Of a stretch of DNA of 64,000 nt, positions 11,146 through 63,932 are shown one piece after another. Positions within the stretch are counted from its first letter, which is position 1. Every line of letters starts with the position of its first letter. The translations under genes and the position numbers were made by a program. Under the pieces are notes generated by a model. That model did not search any database, was not told where the DNA came from, and saw only the letters and a list, made by a program, of their open reading frames with translations. Source of the DNA: Verrucomicrobiia bacterium (lineage in GTDB: Bacteria > Verrucomicrobiota > Verrucomicrobiia > Limisphaerales > UBA1319); assembly GCA_963664225.1 (NCBI GenBank), contig OY760937.1, positions 1,599,236 to 1,663,235 on the forward strand, in the 5' to 3' direction.

Positions 11146-12648
11146 ATGAAGGACCATAGTGCCTTGAATAAACCGGTGGGCATCTGGATTCGCGTTTCCA
11201 CAGAGGATCAAGCCCAAGGTGAGAGCCCGCAACATCACGAGTCTCGTGCCAGAGAATACGCCAAATTCAACGACTGGTCGGTGAAAGAGGTTTACAATCT
11301 CGCGGGCGTCTCAGGCAAGACGGTCATGGAGCATCCCGAAGCCAAACGAATGCTCGCTGATATAAAGCGAGGCCACATCACCGGCCTCATTTTTTCCAAA
11401 CTCGCCCGTCTGGCAAGAAACACCAGGGAGCTCTTGGATTTCGCTGATTTCTTCCGTGAGCAGCATGCCGATATGATCTCGATCCAAGAAAAGATCGATA
11501 CGAGCACCCCTGCCGGTCGCCTTTTTTACACAATGATCGCCGCTCTCTCTCAGTGGGAACGGGAAGAAATTGCGGATCGGGTCAAAGCATCAATCAAAAC
11601 GCGAGCTAAACTTGGGAAAAGTTTGGGTGGCCCTGCCCCATTTGGTTATATGTGGAAGAATAACAGGCTCATTCCTGATCCTGCCGAAGTGCCAATCCGC
11701 AAACTCATGTATGAACTCTTTGCGGAACAGAAACGTCTTAAAGGCGTCGCTCGCCACTTGAACCAATCTGGTTATAGAACCAGAAAAGGTGCCCACTTCA
11801 CGGATACGACCGTTCTGCGACTCATCCAAGACTCAACCGCCAAAGGAATATATCGGGCAAACCACACTTACAGGGACAACAAGGGTAAACTCCGTACAAA
11901 ACCTGAATCCGATTGGATTCAAACACCTGTAGAACCAATCATTTCAATAGAGCTTTGGGATCAATGCAATGAATTGCTGGAAAAGCGCAAAACCATGCGT
12001 CCCCTTGGCCCTAAACCAGTCCACCTTTTTGCTGGTCTTCTGTATTGTGGCTGCGGTCAGAAAATGTATGTGTTTTCGCGTACGCTAAAATACATCTGCC
12101 ACAAATGCCGCAACAAGATCCCCATGGAAGACATTGAGGCAATTTTCCGGGAGGAGCTTGAAGATTTCTTTGTATCAAAAGAAAAAATCACAGCTCACTT
12201 GGCGAGTGGCAACGTTCACCTTGCCGACAAGAAAGAGCGGCTGATGGTCCATGAACGACAATTGGAAAAGATCAGAGTGGAAATGCGCAAAGTTTACCAA
12301 CTCTACCAAAATGATCAAATTGACCCCGAAGGCTTCGGAAAACTGTATCGCCCATTGGAAGACCAAGAACGATCGCTTGGTATTGAATTAGCGAAATTAC
12401 AGGGCGAGCTGGCAGCCCTCCAAATGCACCAATTGTCTGCCGACGAAGTGATCACCGAAGCCATCGATCTTCACCGACAATGGCCAAAGTTCACTCAAAA
12501 TGAAAAACGCCGAATCATCGAAAGTATCACTGAAAAGATTGTAGTGAGCGGCGACGAAATAAACATAACCCTCTGCTATATGCCATCTTGTGAAGAACTC
12601 ACAAAAAGGCAACGAAACCTCTGGGATTCATCGCCGCAATCAGCATGA
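11146..12648 (+). CDS. large serine recombinase (integrase)
   Basis: Resolvase catalytic domain [12 protein letters not shown]...[13 protein letters not shown]. Also a recombinase domain, a Cys-rich zinc ribbon ([15 protein letters not shown]) and a coiled-coil region. The last 8 codons and the stop lie in comM-derived DNA. Confidence 0.9.
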
Positions 12649-13675
12649 ATTGTGATGGGAATGTCATGGACCCCGCGGCGCGCGAAATGGTGACGCACCC
12701 CTCTTCCAAAGGCTGACGCAAGGTCTCCAGAACGTTGCGTTTGAACTCCGGCAATTCGTCCAAAAAGAGCACGCCATGATGCGCGATGGAAATTTCCCCG
12801 GGCGTCGGATTGATGTTGCCTCCGAGCAATCCGGCATCGCTGACCGTATGATGGGGGGCTCGAAAAGGACGCTTGGTAAGCAACGCCTGTCCCGGCGGAA
12901 GGATGCCCACGATGCTGTGAATCTTGGTCGTCTCCAGGGCTTCCTCCAGCGTCAACGGCGGCAGTATGGACGGCAGCCGCTTGGTCAACATCGATTTGCC
13001 CGTCCCCGGCGGCCCAATGAGAAGCGCGTTATGCCCGCCTGCGGCGGCGATTTCCAGGGCGCGCTTCACCGATTCCTGCCCTTTCACATCCGCAAAATCC
13101 AATTCATCTTCCACCGGTTGGGCGAAGAGCGCGGCGATATCCACACGCGTGGGCGGAATTTGGAGACGCCCCTCGAGAAACTCCGCAGCCTCGCGCAAGT
13201 TGTGAACGCCAATCACACACAACCCCTCCACCACCGCCGCTTCGAGCGCATTTTCAGCGGGCACCAACACCCCGGCCTTGCCTTCAGCCCGCGCGCGCAG
13301 CGCCACTGGCAGAACCCCCTTGACCGCGCGCACGCCACCCGTCAGCGCCAGTTCACCCACAATCGCGAAATTCTCCAACTGGTCCGTCTCGATTTGTTCG
13401 CTCGCGGAAAGCAGGCCCAGGGCAATGGGCAGATCGAAGCTCGGACCCTCCTTCTTCACATCGGCGGGCGCCAGGTTGATCGTGATCCGCCCCATCGGAA
13501 ACGTGAACCCGGAATTGGCCATTGCAGTCGCCACCCGATCCCGCGATTCCTTCACCGCGGCATCAGGCAGCCCTACAATCACCACCAGGGTATCACCAAA
13601 GCCCGCATTGACCTCCACCTCTATGGGATAGGCGTCAATACCGGCCAGCGCCGCCGAACAAACCTTGGCCAACAT
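12599..13675 (-). pseudogene. comM: comM/yifB (Mg-chelatase-like ATPase), 5' ~350 codons only, interrupted by the mobile element
   Basis: [22 protein letters not shown]..., Lon-protease-like N-domain, Walker [20 protein letters not shown] and FMLIAAMNP. The frame then runs into unrelated RGFVAFL* where homologues continue with CPCG. Confidence 0.85.
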
Positions 13676-13731
13676 GGAAAAGATTTATGCGCAAACCCAA
13701 GCCCTTGCGCAATGGAATAATGGCGTAGGCC
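13575..13731 (-). repeat. comM 5'-end repeat, copy A (resident copy: leader + first ~33 codons)
   Basis: 149/157 nt identical to 19104..19260 by manual alignment. Includes the upstream palindrome GCGCAAAccc...TTGCGC. Confidence 0.85.
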
Positions 13732-13892
13732 CGAGCGTAGGACGCATGAATACGGCCTGCCCAGAGAAATTAAGCGCGCGTTCTGTCACTCTCGTCCCGC
13801 GAGGCACGAGCGGGAGAGTGGGATCCGTGGCCGACGACAGAGCAATCAGTATAGGACCTCGGTCCGCTCGATGGTCTGATTAGGCGTTTTCA

Positions 13893-14627
13893 TTATTCGG
13901 CATCCGGGGCGGTCTGTTGGAGGCGCTTTAGGTCCTGAAGTTCCACCGGGTCATTTACATAACCATTATTGAACCAGGAGACTGGCGCCGGTCCTTTCCA
14001 CTTCCAGTATTCCGCATGGTTATCGGCAAAAACCAGCACGCAGCCGTGCTGGTGCCGTCGAGCCGGGAGGTCCATCCATACGTCCATTTTGGAGGCATAC
14101 AGAAGACCGCCATTGTTGATTCCGTTCTCATCCTCATCGAGAAAAGTGAGGGTCTTCGATGGATGTCGTATCTCGCTGAATTTCGCCAGCGGAAAAACCA
14201 TGTAGTTGCTCACGCAGTCGTCTCCCGCCATGTAGATGCTCAACGACACGCTACGCAGCCTGGGTGTGCTGGTATCCTCGACGCACGTATGGTCGGATGG
14301 GCAACGGTAAATTTGGAGCGACTGCGCGTACGGGAAGAGCGTGCCCTTTTTGATCGTTGTCGGATCCGCGTCATGGGTGGCACTGCCGGTGACCCAGCTG
14401 CCGACCGGGCTGCGGTGGACGCCGGTGTCAACGCTGTCCAGGTTGAGCGCCAGCCGGTCGGCGTTGTCTGGGGCATAAAGCGTCCATGCCAGTCCAAGCT
14501 GTCGTTGATTGCTGAGGCATTTGGTTCTGGCGGCTTGTCCTTTTGCCGATGATAACGCGGGCAGCAGCAATGACGCCAGGATGGCTATGATCGCAATGAC
14601 CACAAGCAGTTCAACCAGGGTAAAACC
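13893..14627 (-). other. prepilin-type N-terminal cleavage/methylation motif plus DUF1559-like domain embedded in the 966-aa ORF (could be a separate gene starting at ATG 14723)
   Basis: The G of GFTLVELL is encoded at 14625-14627. An in-frame ATG at 14721-14723 (MVLDSTHSG...) lies 32 codons upstream. No stop separates it from the sigma/TM part. Confidence 0.45.
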
Positions 14628-16793
14628 AGGGTCCGAACGGATGCCGGTGCCACGCGAAAACGTCGGCGGGCGGGTTTGCGACGGTAGCGGCTTCGCGCCA
14701 GAGTGGGTGGAATCGAGTACCATATCGTTCCCGGACCCGGGATGCGTGATGGGGGATTCAGGCCGGTTTTTTACCGCCCAGAAAAACAGGATTCCGGCGC
14801 CAGTCGTTAATGCGAGGATCCACAGCGCAGTGATGGACGCACTTGGTCCCGGGAGACCGTCCGCCTCGGCTACGTAAGTTTGGTAAGTGATGTTCTGGCG
14901 GGTCAACTCTCCCAGGGTGAATTCGTTCGCGGGCGCAATGAAGTCCGGAGTGCGAAGGTCGGAGATCCACAGTTTTCTGGAACCATCCATATACTCGAAC
15001 ACTTCGAATCGGGCGTTTTTGTGCCGGGCGACGATGCCCGGTACGCGATCGGCGGAGATGGTGCGCACCTTCCAGTCCATGGTTACCCCCAGAAAAACGG
15101 CCAGTGCGACCATTCCGCACGCGGCCAATGCGGCAAAAGCTTTATCCACACGATGTTCATTAATCAGGTCCGTGGCGGAGAGCGGTCCGGATTGGCGATC
15201 ATGACTTCCGCGCAACAATGTCACCGCGCCAGCCACGAGGATGAACCAGCAGAATGGAATCAGCAGCCACACGGACCACCACCCTGGACGCGTCATGCTG
15301 AGCAGGGGCGCATCCCGGTTTTCAACCTGCGTCTCATGGCTGATTCCCTTCTCGGCCAGCAAGGCCATCGTGGTGTTCTCTGCCGGAGCGACGAACGGGG
15401 TCACCTTCCTATTCTCCAGCAGATCACCATGGAGCGTGCGGACTCCTCTGGCATTTTGGAGCAGCTTAAAGCGGAATTTCCCCACCTGCGAATCGGCGAT
15501 ACGGCTTTGTATTTCACTGGTGGACATGTAGCGAGGTACCGGAAAGTGCGTGGAAGAAATGCGACTGGACGCCCAGCAGAAAAGGCCCAAATAAAAGAGA
15601 GCCACTGTCATGGCCGTCATCGCCCAGGCAGTGATGAATTTTGGAGATGGTCTGGAGATGGAACCGTCTTTAACCCCTTCAGGAACGGTTCGACATCTTC
15701 GTTGCCAAATCCAGATGCCAAGGGATAGCGGCACCACCCCAAACATAAAGATCGGCAGACAGACGTTCAGCCAAATATTCAACGTTATTAAGCCTCTGGC
15801 CGCGGATAGACCGGTCACTTTGGCGAGCGAGACCGTCCCTAGCGGAAGGAGACAAAAGAAAAAGGACATGCTGATTCCCATATTGCGCCAAAAAGTGGCT
15901 ACAGACCGACGCGCCCGCTCACTATTCCGACTATCCCCTCCCATTTTAAATCCAATGTATCCACCTAAGGACAAAGCCGCGACAACCCAGCCAATCATGC
16001 CCATGACAAAATTGGCAACGGTTTGCAGAAACCCGACGGAGCTCGTTGTCTTGGCGGCCACGCTACCATGTTGCGCCAGCGCCGTGCCGGCCGTCGCCGC
16101 CTTGGCGGTCGTGGCCAGCAGGGGCAGAGCCGCAATCACTCCGAACGTGAAGTCCTTGCCCGGACGGGTTTGCTTCAACGCACCGGCGACAAACGCGAGG
16201 AATTCTTCCTGCAGGAGTTTTCGCCCGCGGGATAGTCGTTGTTTTACCGCATCCTCGCTGAGACCTAAATCCTGCGCCACGGCCCCGATGGATTGTTGTT
16301 CGCGATAGAACAACACCAACGGCTCGCGATAAATTTCCGGGATGCGTTCGAGCGAGCGCCAAAGAATCGCCTTTTCCTCGTCGCTGATGACTTGATCGAA
16401 AGGCAGCGGTTCTGGTGAGACCCATTCGTCCATTGCCTCCAGAGATTCAGCGGCATGATCCGGCTCCCGTCCCTGGCGTCGAAACTCTTTGCTGATAAGC
16501 GAACGCGCAATGCTGCACAGCCAGGGCCGCAACTTGGATGGTTCACGCAATTCTGAAAGCTGCTTCCAGGCCGCCACAAAGGTCTCCTGGGCCAGGTCTT
16601 CGCTCCGGCTCACGTCACCAGTGGCACAGTACGCCAGCGACGAAATCAAGATTTGATAGCGTTCAACAATCAGCCGGAAGTGATCCCGATTCCCGCTCAG
16701 GCTCTCGGCCACTAGCTCGGCGTCGTTGATATCTCCCCTCTGCATCGCTTCGCTCGTCATCATATCACCCTGTAAGAACCCGAAAAGCCTCAT
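13893..16793 (-). CDS. chimeric ORF: ECF sigma-70 domain + multi-TM (anti-sigma-like) region + embedded prepilin-type/DUF1559-like domain
   Basis: Sigma region 2 ([14 protein letters not shown]) and region 4 ([39 protein letters not shown]). These are followed by many hydrophobic helices. The pilin-like motif [25 protein letters not shown] sits 244 aa from the C-terminus. The frame is uninterrupted for 966 codons. Confidence 0.7.
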
Positions 16794-16825
16794 GAGGTGA
16801 CAAACAATCGAAGAATCCGCTCCCT

Positions 16826-17005
16826 GGAAAACGCGAACCCGGAATTGGCCATCGCGGTCGCCACCCGATCCCGCGCTTCCTTCACCGCGGCATCAGGCAG
16901 CCCCACAATCACCACCAGGGTATCTCCAAAGCCCGCATTGACCTCGACTTCAATCGGACAGGCATCGACGCCGTTCACAGCGGCGGAAAAAACCCGGGCT
17001 AACAT
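16826..17005 (-). repeat. comM 5'-end repeat, copy B (diverged; first ~59 codons only)
   Basis: [59 protein letters not shown] matches resident ComM at 51 of 59 residues. Upstream DNA is unrelated to copies A and C. The frame ends in a TGA that overlaps the ATG at 16793. Confidence 0.8.
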
Positions 17006-17326
17006 AGGGGCGATTCTGGGGAAAAGCAGGGATTCGGAAAGGACAAAGTAGCAGGCGGGGGATGGCCACAAAAATGCACAAATGGTGCAAGAAATAAGAG
17101 GAATGCAAAGGAACCCAGAAAAGCGAGGGTTCAGTCGCTGGGAAAAACGCCCGACGCCATGGTCCAACCTTGTTCCCATATCCCACTTGCCTGCTTGTTC
17201 TGGGAGTTCTGAACAACCCTAACTGGTGAACTTTAGCATACATCAAAAACGAGGACACTTGCTTGAATCCGACAAAGGGCTCGGTATTCTTCCGGTTGGT
17301 GCGGCCTTACTAGCCGCCAGAACAAA

Positions 17327-18982
17327 TTGAAATTCATGATGCTGAATAAAATCAAATTAAACGTGCTGGTCGGGAAGAGTGTATTGGCCCGGCTTGCCGG
17401 TATTCTCTTGATGGCCCTCGTCCTCGCCTCCGTCGCGTCTCATCCCCTTGCGGCGGAACAGGCGCATCCTGCCCATAATCCCATTACCTGGGCCGATGTT
17501 CCGGACATCGCAATGATCCGTGTAGGAAAAACCTATTACATGAGCAGCACGACGATGCACATGAGCCCGGGCCTCCCGATCATGAAGTCGGCGGACCTGG
17601 TCAACTGGAGTATGGCCTCCTACGCCTATGAAACCCTCGCCGACAACGAAGCCCTCCGCCTCGAAAACGGCAAAAACGCCTACGGTCAGGGCTCCTGGGC
17701 CAGCAGCCTGCGTTTCCACGACGGCGTATTCTATGCCTCGACTTTCTCCGCCACCAGCGGACGCACTCACATCTACAGCACGCGCGATCCGGAGCGCGGC
17801 CCGTGGAAAGCGACGAGTTTCGAGCCCTTGCTGGGTGACCACAGCCTGTTTTTCGACGACGATGGTCGCGTTTACATGGTTTACGGGGGCGGTCGCATCA
17901 GGCTCACCGAGCTGCAACCCGATCTCTCCGGAATCAAGCCCGGTGGCGTGAACAAGGTCATCGTCGAAAACGTCAACGCCCTCTTCGGCGCCGACCAGGG
18001 TGGGCTCAAGGGCGAGGGCTCGCAGCTTTTCAAGATCAATGGCCGCTACTACCTCTTCAACATCGCCTCGCCCGGGAGCCGCTGGGCGCGCACCGTCATC
18101 GTCCACCGCGCCGACTCAATCAACGGTCCCTACGAGGGTCGCATCGCGCTCGATGATCGCGGTATCGCCCAGGGCGGCCTCATCGACACCCCGGAAGGCA
18201 AATGGTATGCCTATCTTTTCAAGGACAACGACGCCGTCGGTCGCATCCCCTACCTCGTGCCGGTGACTTGGAAGGACGGCTGGCCCGTTCTCGGTGAAAA
18301 CGGCAAGGCGCCCATGACGCTCGACATCCCCGCCGGCGGACAAGGCGTCTCCGGTGTCTCCGGCATCGTCGCCTCTGACGAATTCGACCGCGAGCCCGGC
18401 ACCCTCGACCTGCCCCTCGCCTGGCAATGGAATCACAATCCCGAGTCTCGTTTCTGGTCGCTCGCCAAGCGCCCGGGGTACCTGAGCTTCGTCACCAGCC
18501 GGATCGTTTCCACTCTGCCCGAGGCCCCGAATACTCTCACCCAGCGCACCTTTGGCCCTCGCAGTTCCGCCACCACCAGCATCGACGTGAGCGGCATGAA
18601 GGACGGCGACTACGCCGGCATCGCCGCATTTCAGAAACGCTATGGTTTTGTGGGCGTAAAGATGAGCGACGGCGCCAGATCTCTCGTCATGGTGAGTGCC
18701 GACTCCGACAAACCCGAGGAAATCGCCTCCGTTCCCCTCACTGGCAAAACAGTTCACCTCAAGGTCGAATGCGAATTTCAGCCCGCGCCTGAAGTCGCGC
18801 ACTTCTCCTACAGCCTCGACGGCAAATCCTGGACACCCCTCGGTCGTCCCTCGCGCCTTTCCTACACCGTGCCGCACTTCATGGGTTATCGCTTCGCCCT
18901 CTTCTATTATTCGACCAAGACTCCCGGCGGCCGTGTGGACTTTGACTACTACCGAGTCGGGCAAAGCGGCGACTCACTCTGA
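17327..18982 (+). CDS. glycoside hydrolase family 43-like protein (beta-xylosidase/arabinofuranosidase type) with signal peptide
   Basis: NPITWADVPDIAMIRVGKTYYMSSTTMHMSPGLPIMKSADLVNW, five-bladed-propeller-type repeats, and a C-terminal lectin-like domain. The N-terminus is a hydrophobic signal. Confidence 0.8.
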   Translation: MKFMMLNKIKLNVLVGKSVLARLAGILLMALVLASVASHPLAAEQAHPAHNPITWADVPDIAMIRVGKTYYMSSTTMHMSPGLPIMKSADLVNWSMASYAYETLADNEALRLENGKNAYGQGSWASSLRFHDGVFYASTFSATSGRTHIYSTRDPERGPWKATSFEPLLGDHSLFFDDDGRVYMVYGGGRIRLTELQPDLSGIKPGGVNKVIVENVNALFGADQGGLKGEGSQLFKINGRYYLFNIASPGSRWARTVIVHRADSINGPYEGRIALDDRGIAQGGLIDTPEGKWYAYLFKDNDAVGRIPYLVPVTWKDGWPVLGENGKAPMTLDIPAGGQGVSGVSGIVASDEFDREPGTLDLPLAWQWNHNPESRFWSLAKRPGYLSFVTSRIVSTLPEAPNTLTQRTFGPRSSATTSIDVSGMKDGDYAGIAAFQKRYGFVGVKMSDGARSLVMVSADSDKPEEIASVPLTGKTVHLKVECEFQPAPEVAHFSYSLDGKSWTPLGRPSRLSYTVPHFMGYRFALFYYSTKTPGGRVDFDYYRVGQSGDSL

Positions 18983-19103
18983 CCTTCGCCTTTCCTTTTC
19001 AAGGGTCGTGGAAGGGTCTGGAAGAGTTGGTCCGACAAACGACAATTTGGAATGGATTTGCGGAATGTCGCTGCAGTGAATTTGGTGGGGGTATATCGGC
19101 ACG

Positions 19104-19260
19104 ACAATGACCACCAGGGTATCACCGAAGCCCGCATTGACCTCCACCTCGATGGGATAGGCGTCAATACCGGCCAGCGCCGCCGAACAAACCTTGGCCA
19201 ACATGGAAACGATTTATGCGCAAACCCGCGCCTTTGCGCAATGGAATAATGGCGCAGGCC
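19104..19260 (-). repeat. comM 5'-end repeat, copy C (leader + first ~33 codons, then truncated)
   Basis: ATG at 19204. [34 protein letters not shown] then diverges. Has the same upstream palindrome as copy A. Confidence 0.85.
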
Positions 19261-19370
19261 TTCTCCCATTTCGCGGTTTAAAAATCCGCGTTCCTCTGCA
19301 GTCCGGCAATCATCCCGCTTAATCCTGTCATCCTGTCTCATTTTCTTCGCGGCTTCACGTGCGTCCGTCC

Positions 19371-20256: not shown

Positions 20257-21480
20257 TCATTCCAAGGTCGCCTTCTGCTCGGTCTGGATGAATTCCTCGT
20301 TGTCCTCGTAGGCGGTCCTTCTGGAACCCGTCGCGCGGATGATATACCCGGACACCAGCCCGCCCGTCAGCGCCAGGACAAGCGTCGTGCCGATTCCAAC
20401 CAGTTGAGCCTTTGCGATGCCTGGAACAACCAGCACCGCCACCAGTCCGCCGAAGAGTCCCGGCATTCCGTGCAGGTTATGCACTCCGCAGGTGTCCACA
20501 ATGCGAAACGTGTTTTTGATTTTGCCCTGCACCACCGCGTAGCCAAAAACACACAGCAGCCCCGCCAGCGCTCCGATCCCCAGAGCCGTGGGGGCGCTGA
20601 CCATGTTGCAGGTGGCGCCAATCGAAACACCGCCCGCCAGCGCCGCATTGGCGATGTCGCCGATCATGACCTTGCCTTTATTAAACACCGCGCTGAAAAC
20701 GCAGGTGGAGATCGTGGCCCCGCACAAGGCGAAAACAGTGTTCACGGCCGTGGCGGCCACTTGTTCCGGCGGAACAACCGCGCAGCAAAAGCTCGGCCAG
20801 AACAACCAGAGCACCATGGAGCCAATCATGGAAAAACGATTCGAGGTGGCGTCGCCGGGTATTTCCTTTTCCAGGTGGTTCGCCTGCGTCAACGCCACGG
20901 CCAGTCCCAGTCCAAAATAGGCCCCAAACGCATGAATGATGATCGATCCGGCGGAATCCACAAAACCCCTGGTGATGCCCAACCCCCCGTCCAGCACCAG
21001 CCACTCGTTGAGCATATAGAACGGCACAAGCAACAACGCCAGCAGCCCGTATTGATGCAGCCGCACCCGTCCCAGCACCGCCCCGGTCGCGATCAACGCC
21101 GAGGCCACGGCAAATTCAGCCAGCAGCAAGCCCTTGATGCTCTGCATCGGCACCACTTCCGCCGTCAGCACCCCCATCGACCTCAGAATAAAATAGACCG
21201 GCAATCCCACCGACGTCACCAGAAACGTGCCCGTCGTGGCGCTGTATCCGTAGTTCCTCACGAACACCATGAGAAAACCGAACCCGACCAGCAGCATGGC
21301 CAGGATGTGAATCGCAAAATTGTATTGCTGCACCTCGCGCAACGCCGTGGCCGCGCTGACCGCCGCCGGGGCCTCAGCCATTCCAAGAACGGGCATCAGC
21401 AGCAGGCCTGTCAGGACGCACTTACTCAGCCTGTTAAAATTGGACCTTCTGGCGGGTTGAGAAGCGGGATTTATGTCCAT
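20257..21480 (-). CDS. ammonium transporter, Rh-like (Amt/MEP/Rh family)
   Basis: About 11-12 TM segments. IHAFGAYFGLGLAVAL and GVHNLHGMPGLFGGL are Rh50-type signatures. The likely start is the ATG at 21480 (MDINPASQ...). Confidence 0.85.
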   Translation of the reverse strand: MDINPASQPARRSNFNRLSKCVLTGLLLMPVLGMAEAPAAVSAATALREVQQYNFAIHILAMLLVGFGFLMVFVRNYGYSATTGTFLVTSVGLPVYFILRSMGVLTAEVVPMQSIKGLLLAEFAVASALIATGAVLGRVRLHQYGLLALLLVPFYMLNEWLVLDGGLGITRGFVDSAGSIIIHAFGAYFGLGLAVALTQANHLEKEIPGDATSNRFSMIGSMVLWLFWPSFCCAVVPPEQVAATAVNTVFALCGATISTCVFSAVFNKGKVMIGDIANAALAGGVSIGATCNMVSAPTALGIGALAGLLCVFGYAVVQGKIKNTFRIVDTCGVHNLHGMPGLFGGLVAVLVVPGIAKAQLVGIGTTLVLALTGGLVSGYIIRATGSRRTAYEDNEEFIQTEQKATLE

Positions 21481-21712
21481 GCAATGGAATGGGGTGGAGC
21501 TGCGCCGAAACACGCCACAGTTCGTGGTGCGGCGATGCAGCCTGGATTTTGTGAATGCGGTAATGAGCTGTGAGTTTTCATATCCACCGCACAAAGTCAA
21601 GCCCAGCCTGCGCTGAATGGAATATCAAAAAGAAGCAATAAGGCAAAAAATAACAAGGACGTTGCTTTTTTTCTTGCATGTAAACGGCATGTTCATCTTA
21701 GATGAAACCATC

Positions 21713-23353
21713 ATGGCTGCAAAGACTCGTTTTGTTAATTTGGACGCAATGATTCCGAGGGCTGACTTTGCCTTAGAACCAAACAACTCCGTAAGCGGCA
21801 ACACAAGTTTCCATTCAATTTCTGTGAAAGATTTGCAGACAGGAGGCCTGATCCGCCCCACTCTTCGCAAACCAGACTTCCAGAGGGAAACAAATCATTG
21901 GTCACCAGAACAGGTAGTTTCCTTGCTCGAGTGCTTTTTCAATGGTGACCTGATTCCATCGGTCATCGTCTGGAAATCGCCAACATATCTTTTTGTCATA
22001 GACGGAGGGCATCGGCTAAGCGCGATCAGGGCATGGATTGAGGATGACTATGGCGACGGACCAGTGTCTCGTTCATTCTTTGGCGACGCAATTTCGAAAG
22101 AGCAAAAAGCCACTGCTGCAAAAACCCGCGATTTAATTGCGAAAGGAATCGGAAAGTGGCAGCACATCCAGTCGAGTATGGAAAATCCTAGTCTGGATGA
22201 TACAGAACGCCGACGGATTTTGCCAGTTGTATCGCGAGCAATCCCAGTCCAATGGGTTGAGGGTAATGCGGAAAAGGCTGAAGCCTCTTTCTTCAAAATT
22301 AACACACAAGGCACTGCACTGGACGATATTGAGGAACTCTTGCTTTCCAACAGAAGGAAACCAATTGCTATAGCGTCTCGAGCCGTGATTCGAGCAGGAA
22401 TGGGACATCGCTACTGGTCACGTTTTTCACATCCCGTCCCTGAACAAATTGAGGAATTGGCGAAGAAAATTCATTCTACACTCTTCCAACCAGAGGCCGA
22501 AACACCGACTAAAACCTTAGACCTTCCGCTTGGTGGCCCAACAGGGGTGCGCGCCGCGCTACAAATACTAATTGAGTGTGCTCTTGCTGCCAACAGGGAC
22601 CAAAGCGGCAATCCGAAGAAACTGAAGGATCAAGCAGACGACGATACCGGTGATGCAACCAAAGAGACCCTTTCTCGCATGCTTGGTTTGGCACATCGGA
22701 TGACTGGCAATGACAAGGGAAGCCTGGGACTTTATCCAGCAATATATTTTTATGGTCCAACAGGACGCCACCTAAGTCCCATGTTTCTAGGCGTTGTTCT
22801 ATTGCTAAGCCGGAAGATGATCAATAACGATAAGGCCTTTTTCTCGAATTTCACAAACGTTCGCGGCAAGCTCGAGAATATTCTGATAGAGCACAAAGAT
22901 CTCATCGCTACAATCCTCCAAAAGACAATCAGCAGCAAGCGAGTCGTCACCTACGCAGATTTGCTAAATACCCTTGTCGAGAAACTAAACGCCGATGCTT
23001 GCGGGGTAATAAAGGAGTCGGATCTTGTTTCTTTTGCGGGGCTAAATGGCAAAATCATTACAGGGACCTCAGAAGACGTCAGCGCAAGATTCTCTGATGA
23101 TATAAAGAGTGCGGTGTTTATCAAAACCGCACTAAAATCAGCAATCAAATGTCCTATTTGCGATGGTTATTTAGACACAACAAAGTCTGTCTCTTACGAT
23201 CACATTACCGAAAAGGCTATAGGTGGTAAGGGAGACGAACAGAATTGTCAGCTGACACACCCGTATTGCAATCAGTCTGTCAAAAATGGAGTCTTTCAGG
23301 CTGCCATCCCATTCCATCTTGAACAGCCCGTGTCCTCGGTGGAAGATGTTTAA
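21713..23353 (+). CDS. DUF262/ParB-like nuclease domain protein with C-terminal HNH motif (GmrSD-like)
   Basis: KPDFQRETNHWSPEQVVSLL...FVIDGGHRLSAIRAWI and FFKINTQGTALDDIE are DUF262/DGQHR-like. The C-terminal CPICDGYL..YDHITEKAIGGKGDEQNCQLTHPYCNQSVK is HNH-like. The ORF is open from 21617, with alternative ATGs at 21689 and 21713. It is visibly AT-richer than the flanks. Confidence 0.75.
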   Translation: MAAKTRFVNLDAMIPRADFALEPNNSVSGNTSFHSISVKDLQTGGLIRPTLRKPDFQRETNHWSPEQVVSLLECFFNGDLIPSVIVWKSPTYLFVIDGGHRLSAIRAWIEDDYGDGPVSRSFFGDAISKEQKATAAKTRDLIAKGIGKWQHIQSSMENPSLDDTERRRILPVVSRAIPVQWVEGNAEKAEASFFKINTQGTALDDIEELLLSNRRKPIAIASRAVIRAGMGHRYWSRFSHPVPEQIEELAKKIHSTLFQPEAETPTKTLDLPLGGPTGVRAALQILIECALAANRDQSGNPKKLKDQADDDTGDATKETLSRMLGLAHRMTGNDKGSLGLYPAIYFYGPTGRHLSPMFLGVVLLLSRKMINNDKAFFSNFTNVRGKLENILIEHKDLIATILQKTISSKRVVTYADLLNTLVEKLNADACGVIKESDLVSFAGLNGKIITGTSEDVSARFSDDIKSAVFIKTALKSAIKCPICDGYLDTTKSVSYDHITEKAIGGKGDEQNCQLTHPYCNQSVKNGVFQAAIPFHLEQPVSSVEDV

Positions 23354-52015: not shown

Positions 52016-55000
52016 GTGCCTATTATGAACAGAATTCCCATATTTGTTCGGCAGATTCTCACTCGGCCTGGCTCCTTGTCTATTATTCGACGTCCCTCAA
52101 TTGCGCGCTGGAGCCTCATCCCCATTCTCCTTTGTTTTCTTGGCGCGTTGTCCGCTCCAAGGGCTGCCACGTTCGGCGATTTCAACTACTTAAGCAATGA
52201 TACATCCGTCATGATCACCCAATACATTGGCCCGGGTGGCAACGTGATCATTCCAGACACCATCGAGGGCAAACCAATCGCCGTCATCGGCAATGTTGCA
52301 TTCTCGGGTTGCACCAACCTGACAGGCATCACGATCCCCAATGGCGTTAACGAAATTGGGATCAAGGCGTTCTTTGGATGCAAAGCCCTGACGGAACTCA
52401 CAATCCCCAACAGTGTCGCCATTATTGGGAGTTCATCGTTCATTAACTGCAGCAGTCTCACCAATATCACGCTTCCCAATACGCTGACCAGCATCAGCGC
52501 CCTGTCGTTTTCTGGTTGCTTGAAACTGCCCTTTATCGCGATTCCAGACAGTGTCACCAACATTGGGGACAATGCGTTCAGTGGCTGCGCCAGTTTAACA
52601 AGTGTCACAATACCCGCCGGCGTCTCAAAGATTGGTTATCAGGCATTCTTAGGATGCAATAACCTGGTGGCATTCACTGTGAATCCTCTGAATGTGGCTT
52701 ATACAAGTGTTGATGGGGTGCTCTTCGATAAAAACCAGACTTCCCTGATTCAATGCCCGACGGTTAAGACCGGAGACTATACGCCTCCCAACAGCGTGAC
52801 GAGCGTTGGAGATTATGCATTCGCTGACTGTATTGGCCTGACGAATATTGCGCTCCCCAGCGCGGTCACAAACATTGGCAATTTTGCGTTCGCTCGCTGC
52901 GCCAATTTAACGAGCGCACCCATCACGGCTGGCCTCACCGTCATTGGGGCTGGCACATTCTCCGATTGCGTCAGGTTTTCCAACATCGAACTTCCCGCCA
53001 AAATCCTGAAAATCCTGGACGGGGCGTTCTCTGGATGTGCGGCAGTGACGAATATCACAATCGGCGCTGGCACCACCAGGATCGGGGCTATGGCATTCTT
53101 TGGTTGCAACAACCTGATGGCGTTTACAGTGGACCCCCTGAATAAGGCCTTTTGTAGCCTGGATGGGGCATTATTCAGTAAAAACGAGAATTTGCTCATT
53201 CAATGTCCGGCCACAAGGATTGGAAACTACATGATCCCAAACAGCGTCAAAATCATCCAGGATACCGCATTTTTTGGCTGCTCTCGCCTGACAGCCATTA
53301 CGGTGGACGACCTCAACACCGCCTTTTACAGCAGAGATGGCGTATTGTTTGACAAAGGGCTAAAAAGTCTCGTTGCATGCCCTGCTGGCAAGACTGGAAC
53401 TTACTCGATTGACAACAGTATATACAGAATATCCAGTTTTGCATTCTCTGGCTGCAGTCGCCTGACGAATATCATTTTTCCAAGTCGCATTTCGACGGTC
53501 TTCAGCAATGCGTTTATTGATTGCACCGGCCTGACAAGCATCAACCTCCCATACAATTGCAGTGCCGTCACCCCTTATATGTTCTCAGGTTGCACTGGGT
53601 TGGAGAGCGTCATCATCCCCAGTCATGTTGGTGGTGTTTTCGCTACGGCATTCAACAACTGCACGAACTTGTCGGATCTCTATTTTCAGGGCAACAAACC
53701 AACATTCGTAACCGAAGGAACAAATAACACTCTATTTGATGGCGCCTTGCATGCCACCGTATATTACCGCGCTGGAACCACAGGTTGGGACACTAGCTTC
53801 GGCGGCTGGCCTGCCGCGATATGGCTGGATCCGCAAGCGTCCGATTTTGGCTGGAATCAAACAGGGCCGGCTGTCACCATAACTAATTACAGCGGTTCGG
53901 GCGGGAACGCAGCCATCCCGGCCACAATCTTTGGCTATGCTGTCACCAGCATCGGGGATTCTGCGTTCGCTGGCCAAACCAACCTGGCGAGCCTCACAAT
54001 TCCCAACGGCGTGACCAATATTGGGGCCTCATCGTTCGCTGGCTGCACAAGCCTGACGAATGTTATCGTCCCAGGCAGCATGACAACCATCAGTGTCACC
54101 GCATTCGATGGTTGCAACGGCCTGACAAGTGTCTCTTTTGATGGCAATGCGCCGACAGTCACCGGTAATGGCGATCTATTCGCCAATTCCCCCAATGCGA
54201 CAGTGTATTACACCACAGGATCAACAGGCTGGAGTGATACTTTTGGAGGAAGACCAACGGCGCCATTGAGTTACCCCGATACTCACTATTTTATCTACGC
54301 CAGTAATCATTCCGGTCTGACCATAACCGGTTACAACGGTTCCGGCGGGAACGTCATCATTCCAAGTGCAATTTCCGGTTATTCTGTTACCGGCATCGGG
54401 GATTATGCGTTCGCTGGCCAAACCAACCTGGCGAGCATCACGATTCCAAACGGGGTGACCACCATCGGGGATTATGCGTTCAAAGGATGCGTCGGTTTAA
54501 CGTCAGTCGCGATTCCCGACAGTATCACAAGCATGGGAGGCGGTGTTTTTTCAGGCTGCTATGGACTGACATCCGCCCTTCTGCCCGGCAAACTTGGCAA
54601 CATCGGATTTGAAACCTTCTTCAACTGTACAAATTTGACGAACGCCAGAATTGACCCCGGCGTTACCAATATCGGGAACTCCGCCTTCTTTTATTGCGCC
54701 AATCTGACAAACATCACCATCCCCTCCAGTGTGACAACGATTGGGTCCTATGCGTTCAGTGGATGCGCGGCGCTACCCAGTGTGACCTTGTTCAACGGTG
54801 TCACAAACATTGGGAATTGGGTTTTTAGCGGGGACATCGGATTAACGAACATCACGATTCCCGAAAGCGTCACGGACATCGGCCTGTACGCATTCCAGGG
54901 CTGCACTAATCTGGCAGGCGTTGCAATCCCTGCCGGTGTCTCCATACTGCGCGAAGGCGCATTCACTGGTTGCGCTGGCTTGACGAATATTGCGATTCCA

Positions 55001-56998
55001 GACCAAGTCACCAGCATCGAACGCAAAACGTTCCTTGGCTGCAGCAACCTGACCGATGTGGCATTTGGCAAAGGCGTCACCAACATCGATGAACGGGCGT
55101 TTTACGGCTGTGCCAACCTCAAGAGTATCATTGTGCCAGCCAGTGTCGCCGGTATTGGAATCGACGCTTTCAGCGGCTGTAACGCTCTGACGAGCATGTA
55201 CTTTGAAGGCAATGCCCCGGGCAATACAGCCACCCTTTTTCAAAATTCCAACAATGTTAGATTGTATTACCGCTTTGGCACGACGGGCTGGGGTGAATAT
55301 TTCGCTGATCGGCCAACAGCACTTTGGAGTGATCCTGCCGCTCCCGATTTTGTATGTCAGCAACATGGCACAACGATTCATATAATCGGCTACACAGGTT
55401 CCGCCGGGCTCGTCATCATTCCTGACACAATCTATGGCTTGGATGTCACCGATATTGAGAACGGTATTTTCTCAGGGCATGGCAACCTCACCCATGTCAC
55501 CATCCCCGGCAGCATCACGAACATTGGGTACCACGTCTTCATGGATTGCATCGGCCTGACGAATATTACCATACCTGCGAATGTCGCCGCCTTGGGTGAT
55601 TCAGTGTTCTCGGGTTGCACTGGTCTGACGAATATTACCCTACCTGCGAATGTCGCCACCTTGGGTGATTCAGCGTTCTCGGGCTGCACTGGTCTGACGA
55701 ATATTACCCTACCTGCGAATGTCGCCGCCTTGGGTGATTCAGTGTTCTCGGGTTGCACTGGTCTGGCGAATATTACCATACCTGCTAATGTCGCCGCCTT
55801 GGGTGATTCAGCGTTCTCAGGTTGCACTGGTCTGACGAATATTACCCTACCTGCGAATGTCGCCACCTTGGGTGATTCAGCGTTCTCGGGTTGCACTGGT
55901 CTGGCGAATATTACCATACCTGCGAATGTCGCCACCTTGGGTGATTCAGTGTTCTCGGGTTGTACAAGTCTGACGAACGTTGACATCCCCAATCACCTTG
56001 TCGGCTTGGGGTCCTCAGTTTTCGCTGGCTGCACCAAACTTGCCAGCATCACGATTCCAGACGGCGTGACCGGCATTGGCAGCGCGGCCTTCGCTGATTG
56101 CACCAGCCTGGGATCTGTTGTCATACCCGACAGCGTCACCTATATTGGAAACGCAGCCTTCACTCGCTGCATCGGTTTGACGAATGTCACGCTTTCCGTG
56201 TCCGTTACTCTAATTGAAGACGATACGTTTTCAGATTGCGCAAACTTGTCTCACATCCGCATCCCCCAGGGAGTCACGAGTATCGGGAATATGGCGTTTT
56301 CAGGCTGCAGCAGTCTGACGAGCGTAATCGTCCCAAACACCGTCCTTGGCATCGGCAACTACGCCTTCAGGTACTGTGCCGGTTTGACCAACATCGCCAT
56401 CTCCGAAAACTTGATCAGCATGGGTTGGGAAGCCTTGGCTTGGGACAACAGTTTGACCAGCGCGCTTTTTAAGGGAAATGCGACATCCATTTACCCTGCC
56501 GATCAGTTTAAGAATTCCCCCAACGTCACCATCTATTACCGCGCGGGCACTACAGGCTGGGGCTCCACCTTTGCCGGTCGCCCGACCGCCCTGTGGATCG
56601 AGCAACCCACTTATCAGGAGTGGGCCACGACGACCGGTTTGACGGCCAAATTCCCCGACGCCAGCGCGGAAACCGATGACGCCGACCGCGACGGCATGTC
56701 CAACCTGGCCGAAATGCACGCGGGCACAGACCCCATCGATCCGAATTCGAAACTGGCCTTTGAAAGTGTTCCCCGCCCCAACGACCTGGAGGAGGCCGAC
56801 AAAACCGCCCTCGCTCCGGACCAACAGGCCCTGTTCTTCCAGACCGTCCCGGGCAAACAATACATAGTCCAGAGCGTAAACACTTTCGGAGGAACCTGGC
56901 AGACCCAAACCAATTTGACGGCCTCAACCTCCCAAAAACGGGTTTTGCTTAATAAACCGGTCGATCAGGCGTACTATCGCGTAGTTCTGGCACCATAG
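52016..56998 (+). CDS. giant BspA-type leucine-rich-repeat surface protein (1660 aa)
   Basis: Dozens of ~23-aa units (IPxxVTxIGxxAFxGCxxLTx). Recurrent interrepeat modules (YYRAGTTGW..FGGRPTA). A Ca-binding-like DADRDGMSNLAEMHAGTDPIDPNS. The C-terminus ends YYRVVLAP. A signal-like N-terminus is present. An alternative start exists at 52025. Confidence 0.88.
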   Translation: MPIMNRIPIFVRQILTRPGSLSIIRRPSIARWSLIPILLCFLGALSAPRAATFGDFNYLSNDTSVMITQYIGPGGNVIIPDTIEGKPIAVIGNVAFSGCTNLTGITIPNGVNEIGIKAFFGCKALTELTIPNSVAIIGSSSFINCSSLTNITLPNTLTSISALSFSGCLKLPFIAIPDSVTNIGDNAFSGCASLTSVTIPAGVSKIGYQAFLGCNNLVAFTVNPLNVAYTSVDGVLFDKNQTSLIQCPTVKTGDYTPPNSVTSVGDYAFADCIGLTNIALPSAVTNIGNFAFARCANLTSAPITAGLTVIGAGTFSDCVRFSNIELPAKILKILDGAFSGCAAVTNITIGAGTTRIGAMAFFGCNNLMAFTVDPLNKAFCSLDGALFSKNENLLIQCPATRIGNYMIPNSVKIIQDTAFFGCSRLTAITVDDLNTAFYSRDGVLFDKGLKSLVACPAGKTGTYSIDNSIYRISSFAFSGCSRLTNIIFPSRISTVFSNAFIDCTGLTSINLPYNCSAVTPYMFSGCTGLESVIIPSHVGGVFATAFNNCTNLSDLYFQGNKPTFVTEGTNNTLFDGALHATVYYRAGTTGWDTSFGGWPAAIWLDPQASDFGWNQTGPAVTITNYSGSGGNAAIPATIFGYAVTSIGDSAFAGQTNLASLTIPNGVTNIGASSFAGCTSLTNVIVPGSMTTISVTAFDGCNGLTSVSFDGNAPTVTGNGDLFANSPNATVYYTTGSTGWSDTFGGRPTAPLSYPDTHYFIYASNHSGLTITGYNGSGGNVIIPSAISGYSVTGIGDYAFAGQTNLASITIPNGVTTIGDYAFKGCVGLTSVAIPDSITSMGGGVFSGCYGLTSALLPGKLGNIGFETFFNCTNLTNARIDPGVTNIGNSAFFYCANLTNITIPSSVTTIGSYAFSGCAALPSVTLFNGVTNIGNWVFSGDIGLTNITIPESVTDIGLYAFQGCTNLAGVAIPAGVSILREGAFTGCAGLTNIAIPDQVTSIERKTFLGCSNLTDVAFGKGVTNIDERAFYGCANLKSIIVPASVAGIGIDAFSGCNALTSMYFEGNAPGNTATLFQNSNNVRLYYRFGTTGWGEYFADRPTALWSDPAAPDFVCQQHGTTIHIIGYTGSAGLVIIPDTIYGLDVTDIENGIFSGHGNLTHVTIPGSITNIGYHVFMDCIGLTNITIPANVAALGDSVFSGCTGLTNITLPANVATLGDSAFSGCTGLTNITLPANVAALGDSVFSGCTGLANITIPANVAALGDSAFSGCTGLTNITLPANVATLGDSAFSGCTGLANITIPANVATLGDSVFSGCTSLTNVDIPNHLVGLGSSVFAGCTKLASITIPDGVTGIGSAAFADCTSLGSVVIPDSVTYIGNAAFTRCIGLTNVTLSVSVTLIEDDTFSDCANLSHIRIPQGVTSIGNMAFSGCSSLTSVIVPNTVLGIGNYAFRYCAGLTNIAISENLISMGWEALAWDNSLTSALFKGNATSIYPADQFKNSPNVTIYYRAGTTGWGSTFAGRPTALWIEQPTYQEWATTTGLTAKFPDASAETDDADRDGMSNLAEMHAGTDPIDPNSKLAFESVPRPNDLEEADKTALAPDQQALFFQTVPGKQYIVQSVNTFGGTWQTQTNLTASTSQKRVLLNKPVDQAYYRVVLAP
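55561..55974 (+). repeat. six tandem 69-bp (23-codon) near-identical LRR units inside the LRR gene
   Basis: Units start at 55561, 55630, 55699, 55768, 55837 and 55906. They differ at only a few positions. Confidence 0.95.
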
Positions 56999-63800: not shown

Positions 63801-63932
63801 CCTGTTTCGGTAATCCTGTCATCCTGCCATCCTGTCAAAAAATCATCCTTACCGCACATGCTCCGCCCTGTTTCGGTCATCCTGCCATCCTGTCATCCTG
63901 TCAAAAAATCATCCTTGCCGCACTTCCTCCGC
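63801..63932 (+). repeat. two tandem 66-bp units rich in the CATCCTG(T/C)C heptamer
   Basis: cctgtttcggtaatcctgtcatcctgccatcctgtcaaaaaatcatccttaccgcacatgctccgc is repeated starting at 63867 with a few substitutions. Confidence 0.85.

Follow-up and report, generated by a model that had tools for sequence, protein, structure and literature searches.

The start of the gene comM is present three times, in direct orientation, in a 64,000-nucleotide (nt) stretch of DNA from a Verrucomicrobiia bacterium (GenBank assembly GCA_963664225.1, contig OY760937.1, positions 1,599,236 to 1,663,235; the whole stretch is called the window hereafter), and the copies bracket two short segments that each carry one large cargo gene. 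The product of comM is a helicase that aids the integration of heterologous DNA in natural transformation. The best reading of the aligned sequences is that the first 60 codons of comM received two serial imports, each made up of a cargo module and a leader-bearing comM start from another lineage. Comparison of the copies with one another and with related genes establishes the serial order of the events and a foreign origin for the starts that are read as imported. A joint near codon 33 recurs in other lineages, and recombinases are absent from the inserts. The arrangement as a whole is tentatively best explained, with a confidence that stays somewhat below even, by serial import in the form of non-autonomous units joined by an enzyme encoded elsewhere.

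Three direct copies of the comM start

Listing of the open reading frames (ORFs), repeat finding and alignment located the comM 5' end in three direct copies on the minus strand, here called A, B and C:

13575-13731, minus strand: copy A, 56-nt leader and codons 1-33 of the resident comM
13499..13731, minus strand: start of the resident comM, which includes copy A and is read as an imported 56-nt leader plus comM nt 1-177
16815-17005, minus strand: copy B, second stranded comM start, with ATG at 17005 and a degenerate tail at 16815-16828
19104-19260, minus strand: copy C, read as the oldest stranded comM start, with a 56-nt leader, ATG at 19204 and codons 1-33

Copies A and C share 149 of 157 positions (94.9%) over the 56-nt leader, the ATG and codons 1-33, as an earlier note on this DNA had reported from inspection of the letters. 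Their homology starts at GGCCT[A/G]CGCC and ends at ...GGTGGTSATTGT, about nt 100-108 of comM. Copy C corresponds to ComM residues 1-34 with 100% amino acid (aa) identity, its leader holds the palindrome TGCGCAAA..TTTGCGCA, and chromosomal DNA continues upstream of it. Copy B is 85% identical to A over 191 nt and matches ComM residues 1-64 at 78% (tblastn), and the DNA upstream of it is unrelated to the A/C leader by alignment. In the last ~15 nt of copy B four of the five differing codons carry non-synonymous changes, and this degeneracy places the real break near nt 177, after ...ANSGFAF. The earlier description of B as a more diverged copy, with unrelated upstream DNA and a break after that motif, was thus borne out, the copy being extended to 16815. 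The comM sequence breaks off at codon 33 in copy C and at codon 59 in copy B.

An assembly error, which the earlier note had raised as a possible source of the repeats, does not account for them. One ENA contig of 175 kb matches the window without a difference through 22.9 kb of the array region, and a separate Logan assembly contig, 100% identical, reaches from a point within C (19181) to a point within A (13651). Since independent assemblies hold the same structure, the array is no assembly artefact. The assemblies available show the integrated form only. An exact DNA pattern scan of metagenome contigs for comM starts of the A, C, L001 or L003 type (L numbers designate loci compared here) gave no match and no conspecific genomes. 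Exact-protein look-ups for the 966-aa ORF located between A and B and for ComM', the truncated product of the resident gene, returned only the same arrangement, and the GH43 protein encoded between B and C was without a record.

Divergence among the copies and the mosaic structure of copy B

Copy B is a mosaic with respect to A. The two are 70% identical over nt 1-63 and 95% identical over nt 64-177, the relatives showing 62-90% identity to A in these stretches, so that the first 63 nt of B are as distant from A as are the genes of other genera. Database hits are Limisphaerales-like and mark the organism as a Verrucomicrobium. The closest relatives with an intact ComM are L001 (97% aa identity) and L003 (94%), whose comM DNA is 84-86% identical to that of the window; ComM' and the intact ComM of L001 share 96.6% of residues 1-351. 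The identity between A and C (95%) is therefore far above that between A and any relative (84-86% at the nucleotide level for the closest).

The differences between copies are mostly silent. Synonymous and non-synonymous changes stand at 3:0 between A and C (codons 1-33) and at 4:2 between A and B (codons 22-59), and the same comparison of an upstream fragment with its own comM in two loci described below gave 9:1 (L138) and 20:2 (L128), which sums to 36 synonymous against 5 non-synonymous changes. Codons 1-21 of A and B differ by 10:6, the replacements being conservative. This synonymous bias indicates that the copies evolved as functional alleles in separate lineages before they were joined, and not as decaying local duplications. 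Copy A is ~95% identical both to C (-56..+100) and to B (nt 64-177). Such a uniform divergence of ~5% is what would be expected if the first 177 nt of A came from a single donor ~5% diverged from the resident gene. Both the mosaic nature of copy B and the synonymous bias support the proposal of the earlier note that successive insertions each supplied a leader and a comM start of their own.

Copies A, B and C reach 90-95% identity in a 37-nt block (nt 64-100). This block fits the core of an attachment (att) site and fits a homologous crossover equally well; nucleotide conservation along the first 285 nt of comM shows no peak at nt 64-100.

The same data bear on the simplest origins of direct repeats, which are duplication in situ, a long target-site duplication or an error of assembly. 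Direct repeats that flank an insertion can mimic a target-site duplication. Duplication in situ and at a target site were both rejected, given that the leader of B is unrelated, that its start is 30% diverged and that the 36:5 bias contradicts neutral decay. The segments have neither a transposase nor an inverted-repeat pair at their ends, as the target-site duplication of a transposition would require, and an assembly artefact was rejected on the recurrence of the structure in separate assemblies. Together these origins are given a negligible probability.

Cargo segments

The DNA between the copies is made up of two modules and short connecting stretches:

17278..19001 (ORF 17327-18982), plus strand: GH43 beta-xylosidase-like gene block, Pfam GH43 and GH43_C2
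13892..16809 (966-aa ORF 13893-16793), minus strand: sigma/anti-sigma and prepilin-like module, Pfam Sigma70_r2, Sigma70_r4_2 and N_methyl
19002..19103: 102 nt between the break of copy C and the GH43 block; the sole match is 16 nt long (E = 0.024)
17006..17277, minus strand: putative foreign leader upstream of copy B, without homologue in 177 comM loci
13732..13891, minus strand: hairpin-bearing spacer of 160 nt from the stop codon of the module to the leader read as imported; no homologue found

Each segment contains a single large ORF, and the rest of its DNA is in pieces of at most 321 nt, which leaves no room for a recombinase gene in either segment. The statement of the earlier note that each segment holds one large cargo gene and neither holds a recombinase is confirmed by these lengths and by the Pfam assignments. 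The spacers (19002-19103, 17006-17326 and 13732-13892) gave no significant match in the fetched loci or elsewhere in the window.

The GH43 block is 94.4% identical at the nucleotide level to the metagenome contigs L089-L092, the homology being limited to 17278-19001 of the window, and its product is ~80-87% identical to Betaproteobacterial proteins (Pelomonas/Roseateles). None of the GH43 homologues looked up (L088-L092) is adjacent to comM, and the copy of L088 (93% nt identity) has other glycoside-hydrolase genes clustered around it. These comparisons indicate a tightly bounded transfer across lineages, apparently a recent one because the GH43 DNA reaches 94% identity and the host comM only 84-86% to its closest relatives.

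The sigma/pilin region normally consists of two genes, one for a sigma/anti-sigma-like protein of about 680 aa and one for a prepilin-like protein of 257 aa, which are fused into one ORF in the window (966 aa) and in a few other genomes. A 2.9-kb block with equally sharp ends is found in the unrelated contexts of L093 (7955-10877) and L097 (4297-7210), both 82% identical to the window and 90.5% to each other, and flanking repeats are absent from these two loci. The same sharp ends in three unrelated contexts suggest that the two-gene module moves as a unit. The module and the B leader upstream of it face the same way, and transcription of the module could begin at that leader. At 16790-16795 (ATGA), the stop codon that ends the ORF of the stranded B fragment shares bases with an ATG of the 966-aa ORF. 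This ATG is replaced by CTG or TTG in L093 and L097, so the true start is probably the ATGATG located ~30 nt downstream.

Survey of comM loci in other genomes

The survey covered comM loci from species-representative genomes (80) and from metagenomes (80), with flanks of at most 10 kb per side. Each locus was searched by tblastn and also against the start of the comM that it contains. Only the best full-length N-terminal matches were retained, and elements that split comM at codon 33 without restoring it would be under-sampled for that reason.

Both unloaded and differently loaded sites were found; the earlier note had named their absence as grounds to refute integration, and its proposal withstands this check. 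The comM genes of L001 and L003 are intact and without fragments. An orphan 5' fragment lies upstream of an intact comM in 6 of the 107 other Verrucomicrobial loci with more than 2 kb of upstream sequence:

L138: fragment -45..+98, 91% identical to its own comM; 1.8-kb insert with a protein that has a weak SGL (beta-propeller-type) match
L102: fragment -1..+88, fused in frame to a 1218-aa ORF, 89% identical to its own comM; 3.7-kb insert with a CarboxypepD_reg-repeat protein
L104: fragment -1..+78, 84% identical to its own comM; 6.2-kb insert with DJ-1, CheB, CheB/CheR-PAS and histidine-kinase genes
L172: fragment -50..+97, about 80% identical to its own comM; 4-kb insert with a GntR-aminotransferase
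L176: fragment -53..+83, 73% identical to its own comM; 2.7-kb insert with a TPR/cyclase protein
L128: fragment -46 to codon 220 with an internal deletion, 88% identical to its own comM; 1.8-kb insert

The fragments end at about nt 78-100 in five of the six loci. At the nucleotide level the breaks of copy C, L138 and L102 fall within nt 98-103, in lineages that are only 72-76% identical in comM DNA, and the homology of the leader starts between -45 and -56 in five cases. At the nucleotide level, the comM genes of different hosts share only 63-82% identity. Most orphan fragments are closer to their own comM than the hosts are to one another, the most decayed ones (L172 and L176) being the exceptions, and the cargo differs between loci. 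Both features point to independent events.

No recombinase, transposase, phage or transfer genes were found in the six other inserts (1.8-6.2 kb). Hence all eight inserts between an orphan and an intact comM, two in the window and six elsewhere, contain ordinary cargo genes only. This recurring, recombinase-free pattern suggests an insertion route that has not been described. A comM start alone beside an integrase was sought in viral contigs (4 matches) and phage records (24 matches) and was not found; all 24 phage-record matches, and the 4 viral contigs as far as examined, are long or full comM stretches that flank proviruses. The clusters of neighbouring genes on the two sides of comM number 44 and 50 in 57 loci, and this variability, being equally high on both sides, is uninformative on a hotspot specific to the upstream side.

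Proposed history and joining mechanism

The two imports can be ordered from the limits of the copies. A first event (X) would have brought the DNA from 19103 to 16943, that is, the 102-nt stretch, the GH43 block, the foreign leader and nt 1-63 of a foreign comM. Its joint with the resident gene would lie in the shared stretch of nt 64-100, where the foreign start would be fused to the resident body, and the resident leader with codons 1-33 would have been stranded upstream as copy C. A second event (Y) would have brought the DNA from 16809 to 13499, with the sigma/pilin module, the 160-nt spacer, the 56-nt leader and comM nt 1-177, from a donor ~5% diverged; with a joint near nt 177, the hybrid start would have been stranded as copy B. 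The displaced resident sequence would then persist as C (-56 to +100) and B (nt 64-177). Both events would have kept comM whole, and the gene would have been cut only later, at codon 351, by an unrelated serine recombinase element.

The imported units would be non-autonomous and cassette-like, joined in the comM leader or 5' segment by an enzyme encoded elsewhere. We infer both the mobility of such units and the nature of an enzyme acting in trans from the hotspot at codon 33 across Verrucomicrobiota and from inserts that never carry recombinase or mobile-element genes. The enzyme would most likely be a site-specific recombinase acting at about nt 64-108, as in the elements that target dusA and prfC. 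Three features favour this choice, namely that the break recurs within a few nucleotides in distant lineages, that the leader segment consistently starts at -45 to -56, and that the block of nt 64-100 is similar even though the rest of the imported start is foreign.

Several observations weigh against serial import by such an enzyme. No recombinase acting at the comM 5' site was identified within the 64-kb window, and neither an excised circle nor an identical cassette at two sites was seen. The joints of different loci share no conserved motif just inside them, which a single recombinase family might leave. The survey, built on best N-terminal matches and flanks of at most 10 kb, would miss large integrase-bearing elements. 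The codon-59 joint has no counterpart in the other genomes surveyed. With respect to the leader, a simple sigma-70 consensus scan did not call that of A and C as a promoter, and its palindrome scores as terminator-like. The site-specific integration put forward in the earlier note therefore stands in part: the codon-33 break does recur in independent lineages, which favours a site-specific process, but the codon-59 site is not seen elsewhere, and an integrase is no more than a candidate for having made the joints.

The leaders read as imported may nevertheless act as promoters, and a layout TTGCGC-N17-CATAAAT is common to the leaders of relatives. The palindrome TGCGCAA-N-TTGCGCA (13688-13711 and 19217-19240) is followed by a T-rich run, and could equally be the operator of a dimeric regulator. 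A resemblance of the leader to a dif/Xer site was dropped as it is not shared by the leaders of other lineages.

A more general form of the proposal, which we regard as possible though rather doubtful, is a cassette-capture system of Verrucomicrobiota that has not been described. The comM leader with the first ~33 codons (about -50 to +100) would serve in it both as attachment or homology site and as self-repair module, and cargo would be stacked upstream, in the manner of an integron, by a host or trans-acting recombinase or by the transformation/RecA machinery, to which ComM itself belongs.

Homologous recombination could also act without any dedicated recombinase. Circular or transforming DNA with a comM segment (-56 to +100 or to +177) and cargo would be inserted by a single Campbell-type crossover, with duplication of the segment, and circles would be regenerated between the repeats. 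The geometry is that of a suicide plasmid integrated through a 5' gene fragment, with a truncated upstream copy in its full chromosomal context and an intact downstream copy with a short leader. The absence of recombinase genes from every insert is as expected, the imported starts are usually 88-95% identical to the resident gene and thus inside the range of homologous recombination, and the switch of B from foreign to resident-like sequence falls in the best-conserved local block. However, such crossovers explain neither the origin of the first joint between a comM segment and cargo, nor a joint at nt 98-103 in three lineages only 72-76% identical in comM DNA, nor a leader that always starts at -45 to -56, and the foreign allele of B, 70% identical over nt 1-63, would be a poor substrate for RecA. 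This explanation is considered unlikely.

Comparison with known insertion systems

Integrative elements specific for dusA, such as IMEVchUSA3, and the SXT/R391 ICEs (integrative conjugative elements) at prfC insert within about the first 35 codons, leave the native start at the far junction and supply a new promoter and a diverged N-terminal coding sequence, so that the gene stays functional (PMC8409611, PMC2791158). In the dusA element, the first 35 residues of the replacement N-terminus share 61% identity with their native counterparts (PMC8409611). The comM insertions resemble these elements in their position early in a conserved gene (codons 33 and 59) and in the imported new start. Whereas the dusA and SXT elements measure 20-100 kb and carry their own tyrosine integrase, directionality factor and transfer or mobilisation genes, the comM inserts measure 2-6 kb, carry ordinary cargo and hold a recombinase in none of eight cases. 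The comM target and the phylum set them further apart. The element-encoded tyrosine integrase that characterises 5'-restoring elements was not found by Pfam analysis of the two cargo ORFs, nor in the six other loci.

Cis-mobilisable elements (CIMEs) are integrase-less segments flanked by att repeats that form tandem arrays beside the target gene (PMC5704250), and copies A, B and C likewise flank recombinase-free segments in tandem. CIMEs are decay products of ICEs or of integrative and mobilisable elements, and depend for mobilisation on a cognate ICE that occupies the same att site, whereas the comM array is without decay remnants. No element genes or pseudogenes occur in any of the eight inserts, and the adjacent element uses codon 351 and a serine recombinase, with none for the 5' site within the window.

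The array could still descend from conventional islands, which would have carried an integrase and restored the comM start, integrated in tandem and then been reduced to one cargo gene with att-flanking sequences. Tandem accretion followed by decay to integrase-less, att-flanked remnants is well documented (PMC5704250), 5'-restoring islands are known for dusA and prfC (PMC8409611), and the survey is blind to islands larger than 10 kb. Against this origin, neither an integrase, a transfer gene or a phage gene nor a recognisable pseudogene was found in any of the eight inserts, and no integrase-bearing example at the comM start was found in about 170 comM loci or in the viral contigs. Moreover, the cargo genes are intact and in the window lie 5-272 nt from the repeats, where random deletion should have left fragments; pieces of only 5, 102, 160 and 272 nt outside the cargo modules argue against the decay of a large element. 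We regard this origin as improbable.

The view of the earlier note that the array lies outside the standard classes of features was overstated, in that dusA and prfC elements supply a promoter and an N-terminus (PMC8409611) and integrase-less tandem CIMEs have been described (PMC5704250). What is unusual with respect to known systems is the consistent absence of recombinase and mobile-element genes. Phage 21 and e14 in icd carry a substitute gene end, so that the gene is intact and a displaced, near-identical fragment lies beyond the element, as at comM. They differ in that the 3' end is replaced and that the element is a prophage with its own integrase. The pdif modules and the integrative mobile elements exploiting Xer (IMEX) are small, recombinase-less modules of one or a few genes that, like the comM segments, are located between repeated sites, with 28-bp dif-like sites and the XerCD enzyme encoded elsewhere. 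The repeat unit at comM is in contrast a gene leader plus start of 150-250 nt. Integron cassettes were rejected as a model, the repeat aligning to the comM leader and coding start and not to an attC-type site. Annotated ORFs flanking the array, from 6.6 to 23.4 kb, include no recombinase gene other than the serine recombinase.

comM as a target at other codons

Mobile elements of several phyla preferentially target comM (PMC11472951), and in the window the gene is also interrupted further into its coding sequence:

12599..13675, minus strand: comM' ORF of 358 aa, Pfam ChlI and Mg_chelatase, made of residues 1-351 and 7 residues from the serine recombinase element
11146..12648, plus strand: large serine recombinase of an ICE-like element, Pfam Resolvase, Recombinase and Zn_ribbon_recom

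The resident comM is cut at codon 351, its 3' end being outside the window, and the ICE-like element inserted there also bears TrwB-like, ArdC, RadC and primase genes. The same junction sequence is found in L036, L108, L122, L124, L148 and L156. As the earlier note had stated, the nearby serine recombinase uses a separate site inside comM, which is codon 351. The insertion is a separate, conventional event and not the agent of the 5' array. Large-serine-recombinase elements at codon 351-352 occur in many Verrucomicrobial lineages (the window, with the junction near 12623, L036, L108, L109, L120, L122, L124, L148 and L156). The element-side junction is conserved (ACAGGTTTCGTTGCCTTTTTGTGAGTTCTTCA...) and accounts for a ComM ORF length of exactly 358 aa in dozens of metagenome proteins. 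In the viral contigs no close relatives of the serine recombinase of the window were found.

Other codons are hit as well. Serine recombinases ~51% identical to that of the window lie at comM codons 118-123 in L031 (10001-11822) and L125 (148-1978), so that the family appears to have shifted its target site inside comM. Four Verrucomicrobial loci (L025 ~994, L106 ~2054, L128 ~735 and L174 ~10290) have comM 5' fragments that break at a single position, codon 220, immediately ahead of the Walker A motif, where GTTRT is followed by unrelated DNA; a serine recombinase prophage of a distant lineage (L180, ~3346) has its junction there too. Downstream of an intact comM, at a distance of 0.6-3 kb, L063 (14528-14979), L051 (12609-12989) and L040 (12185-12339) carry fragments of the 3' part of the gene, and that of L063 begins at residue 343, near the 351 site. 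These 3'-fragment loci mirror the 5' arrays. The ORFs tested in the inserts of L063 and L051 include no recombinase; the insert of L040 measures 0.65 kb. In L178 and L182 two serine recombinase genes lie just upstream of comM, with no second comM fragment within 19.5 kb.

Large serine recombinase elements, such as the one at codon 351, have their target gene in common with the events at codons 33 and 59, and their site-specific breaks recur at fixed codons (118-123, 220 and 351-352). Serine recombinase elements split the gene and leave it unrestored, with the recombinase beside the junction, whereas the events at codons 33 and 59 duplicate the start and leave the gene whole.

In a rival explanation, a site-specific mobile element, for instance one with a serine recombinase, would first have split comM at codon 33, and a hit at codon 59 would have followed. 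Each time the gene would have been rescued by one-sided homologous recombination with DNA of a related strain (homology-facilitated illegitimate recombination), in which the upstream flank, leader and comM start of the donor would have overwritten the element, and the old start would have been left as a scar. Rescue of an interrupted comM through recombination has been proposed earlier (PMC11472951). Such a history is in line with the many relatives in which a serine recombinase element interrupts comM, at codons 118-123 or 351-352, and with the orphan ends at codon 220 (L025, L106, L128 and L174) that match the prophage junction of L180. It is also in line with the 3' fragments downstream of intact comM (L063, near the 351 site, L051 and L040), and with imported starts that resemble ordinary orthologous alleles. 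It is nevertheless given a low probability. None of the elements seen splits codon 33 or 59. In event X the illegitimate joint would need to lie no more than about 100 nt from the old junction, in event Y no more than about 20 nt, and no element gene could be left in eight of eight inserts, which is unlikely with random joints in elements of 10-100 kb. Furthermore, both C and B contain nt 64-100 in a resident-like form, where a simple split and rescue predicts otherwise, and the GH43 gene is a recent transfer that is found elsewhere away from comM and is no native neighbour of it.

Implications

If the reading as serial imports is right, the comM locus is used in a second mode, in which DNA enters near codon 33, repairs the gene on entry and does so without a recombinase of its own. 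Were the joining done by a trans-acting or host enzyme, a phylum that has been little studied would have a new route to acquire genes one at a time; the route would be the non-autonomous counterpart of the elements at dusA and prfC and might serve as a tool to insert DNA site-specifically. Were comM instead hit by elements and rescued, the proposed conflict of mobile elements with transformation would gain direct evidence from a genome. Under either reading, the orphan gene starts are usable as markers to date and order gene acquisitions.

Flanks of the array and other features of the window

The chromosomal flank upstream of the array carries a gene syntenic with L001:

19371..20168, minus strand: DUF434/DUF5616 gene (Pfam), 76% aa and 77% nt identity to L001

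The interval between the DUF2959 and DUF434 genes is also variable. In the window (20257-23353) it contains a GmrSD/HNH restriction-type gene and an ammonium transporter, and in L001 (2140-6903) GntR and ABC-transporter genes. A 66-nt tandem repeat with the motif ATCCTGTCATCCTG is located at 63801-63932, and a 16-nt exact match to its motif is found at 19320-19335, between the DUF434 gene and the leader of copy C. Finally, a 1660-aa ORF (52016-56998) contains 69-nt (23-aa) tandem repeats at 55408-56166 together with dispersed internal repeats.

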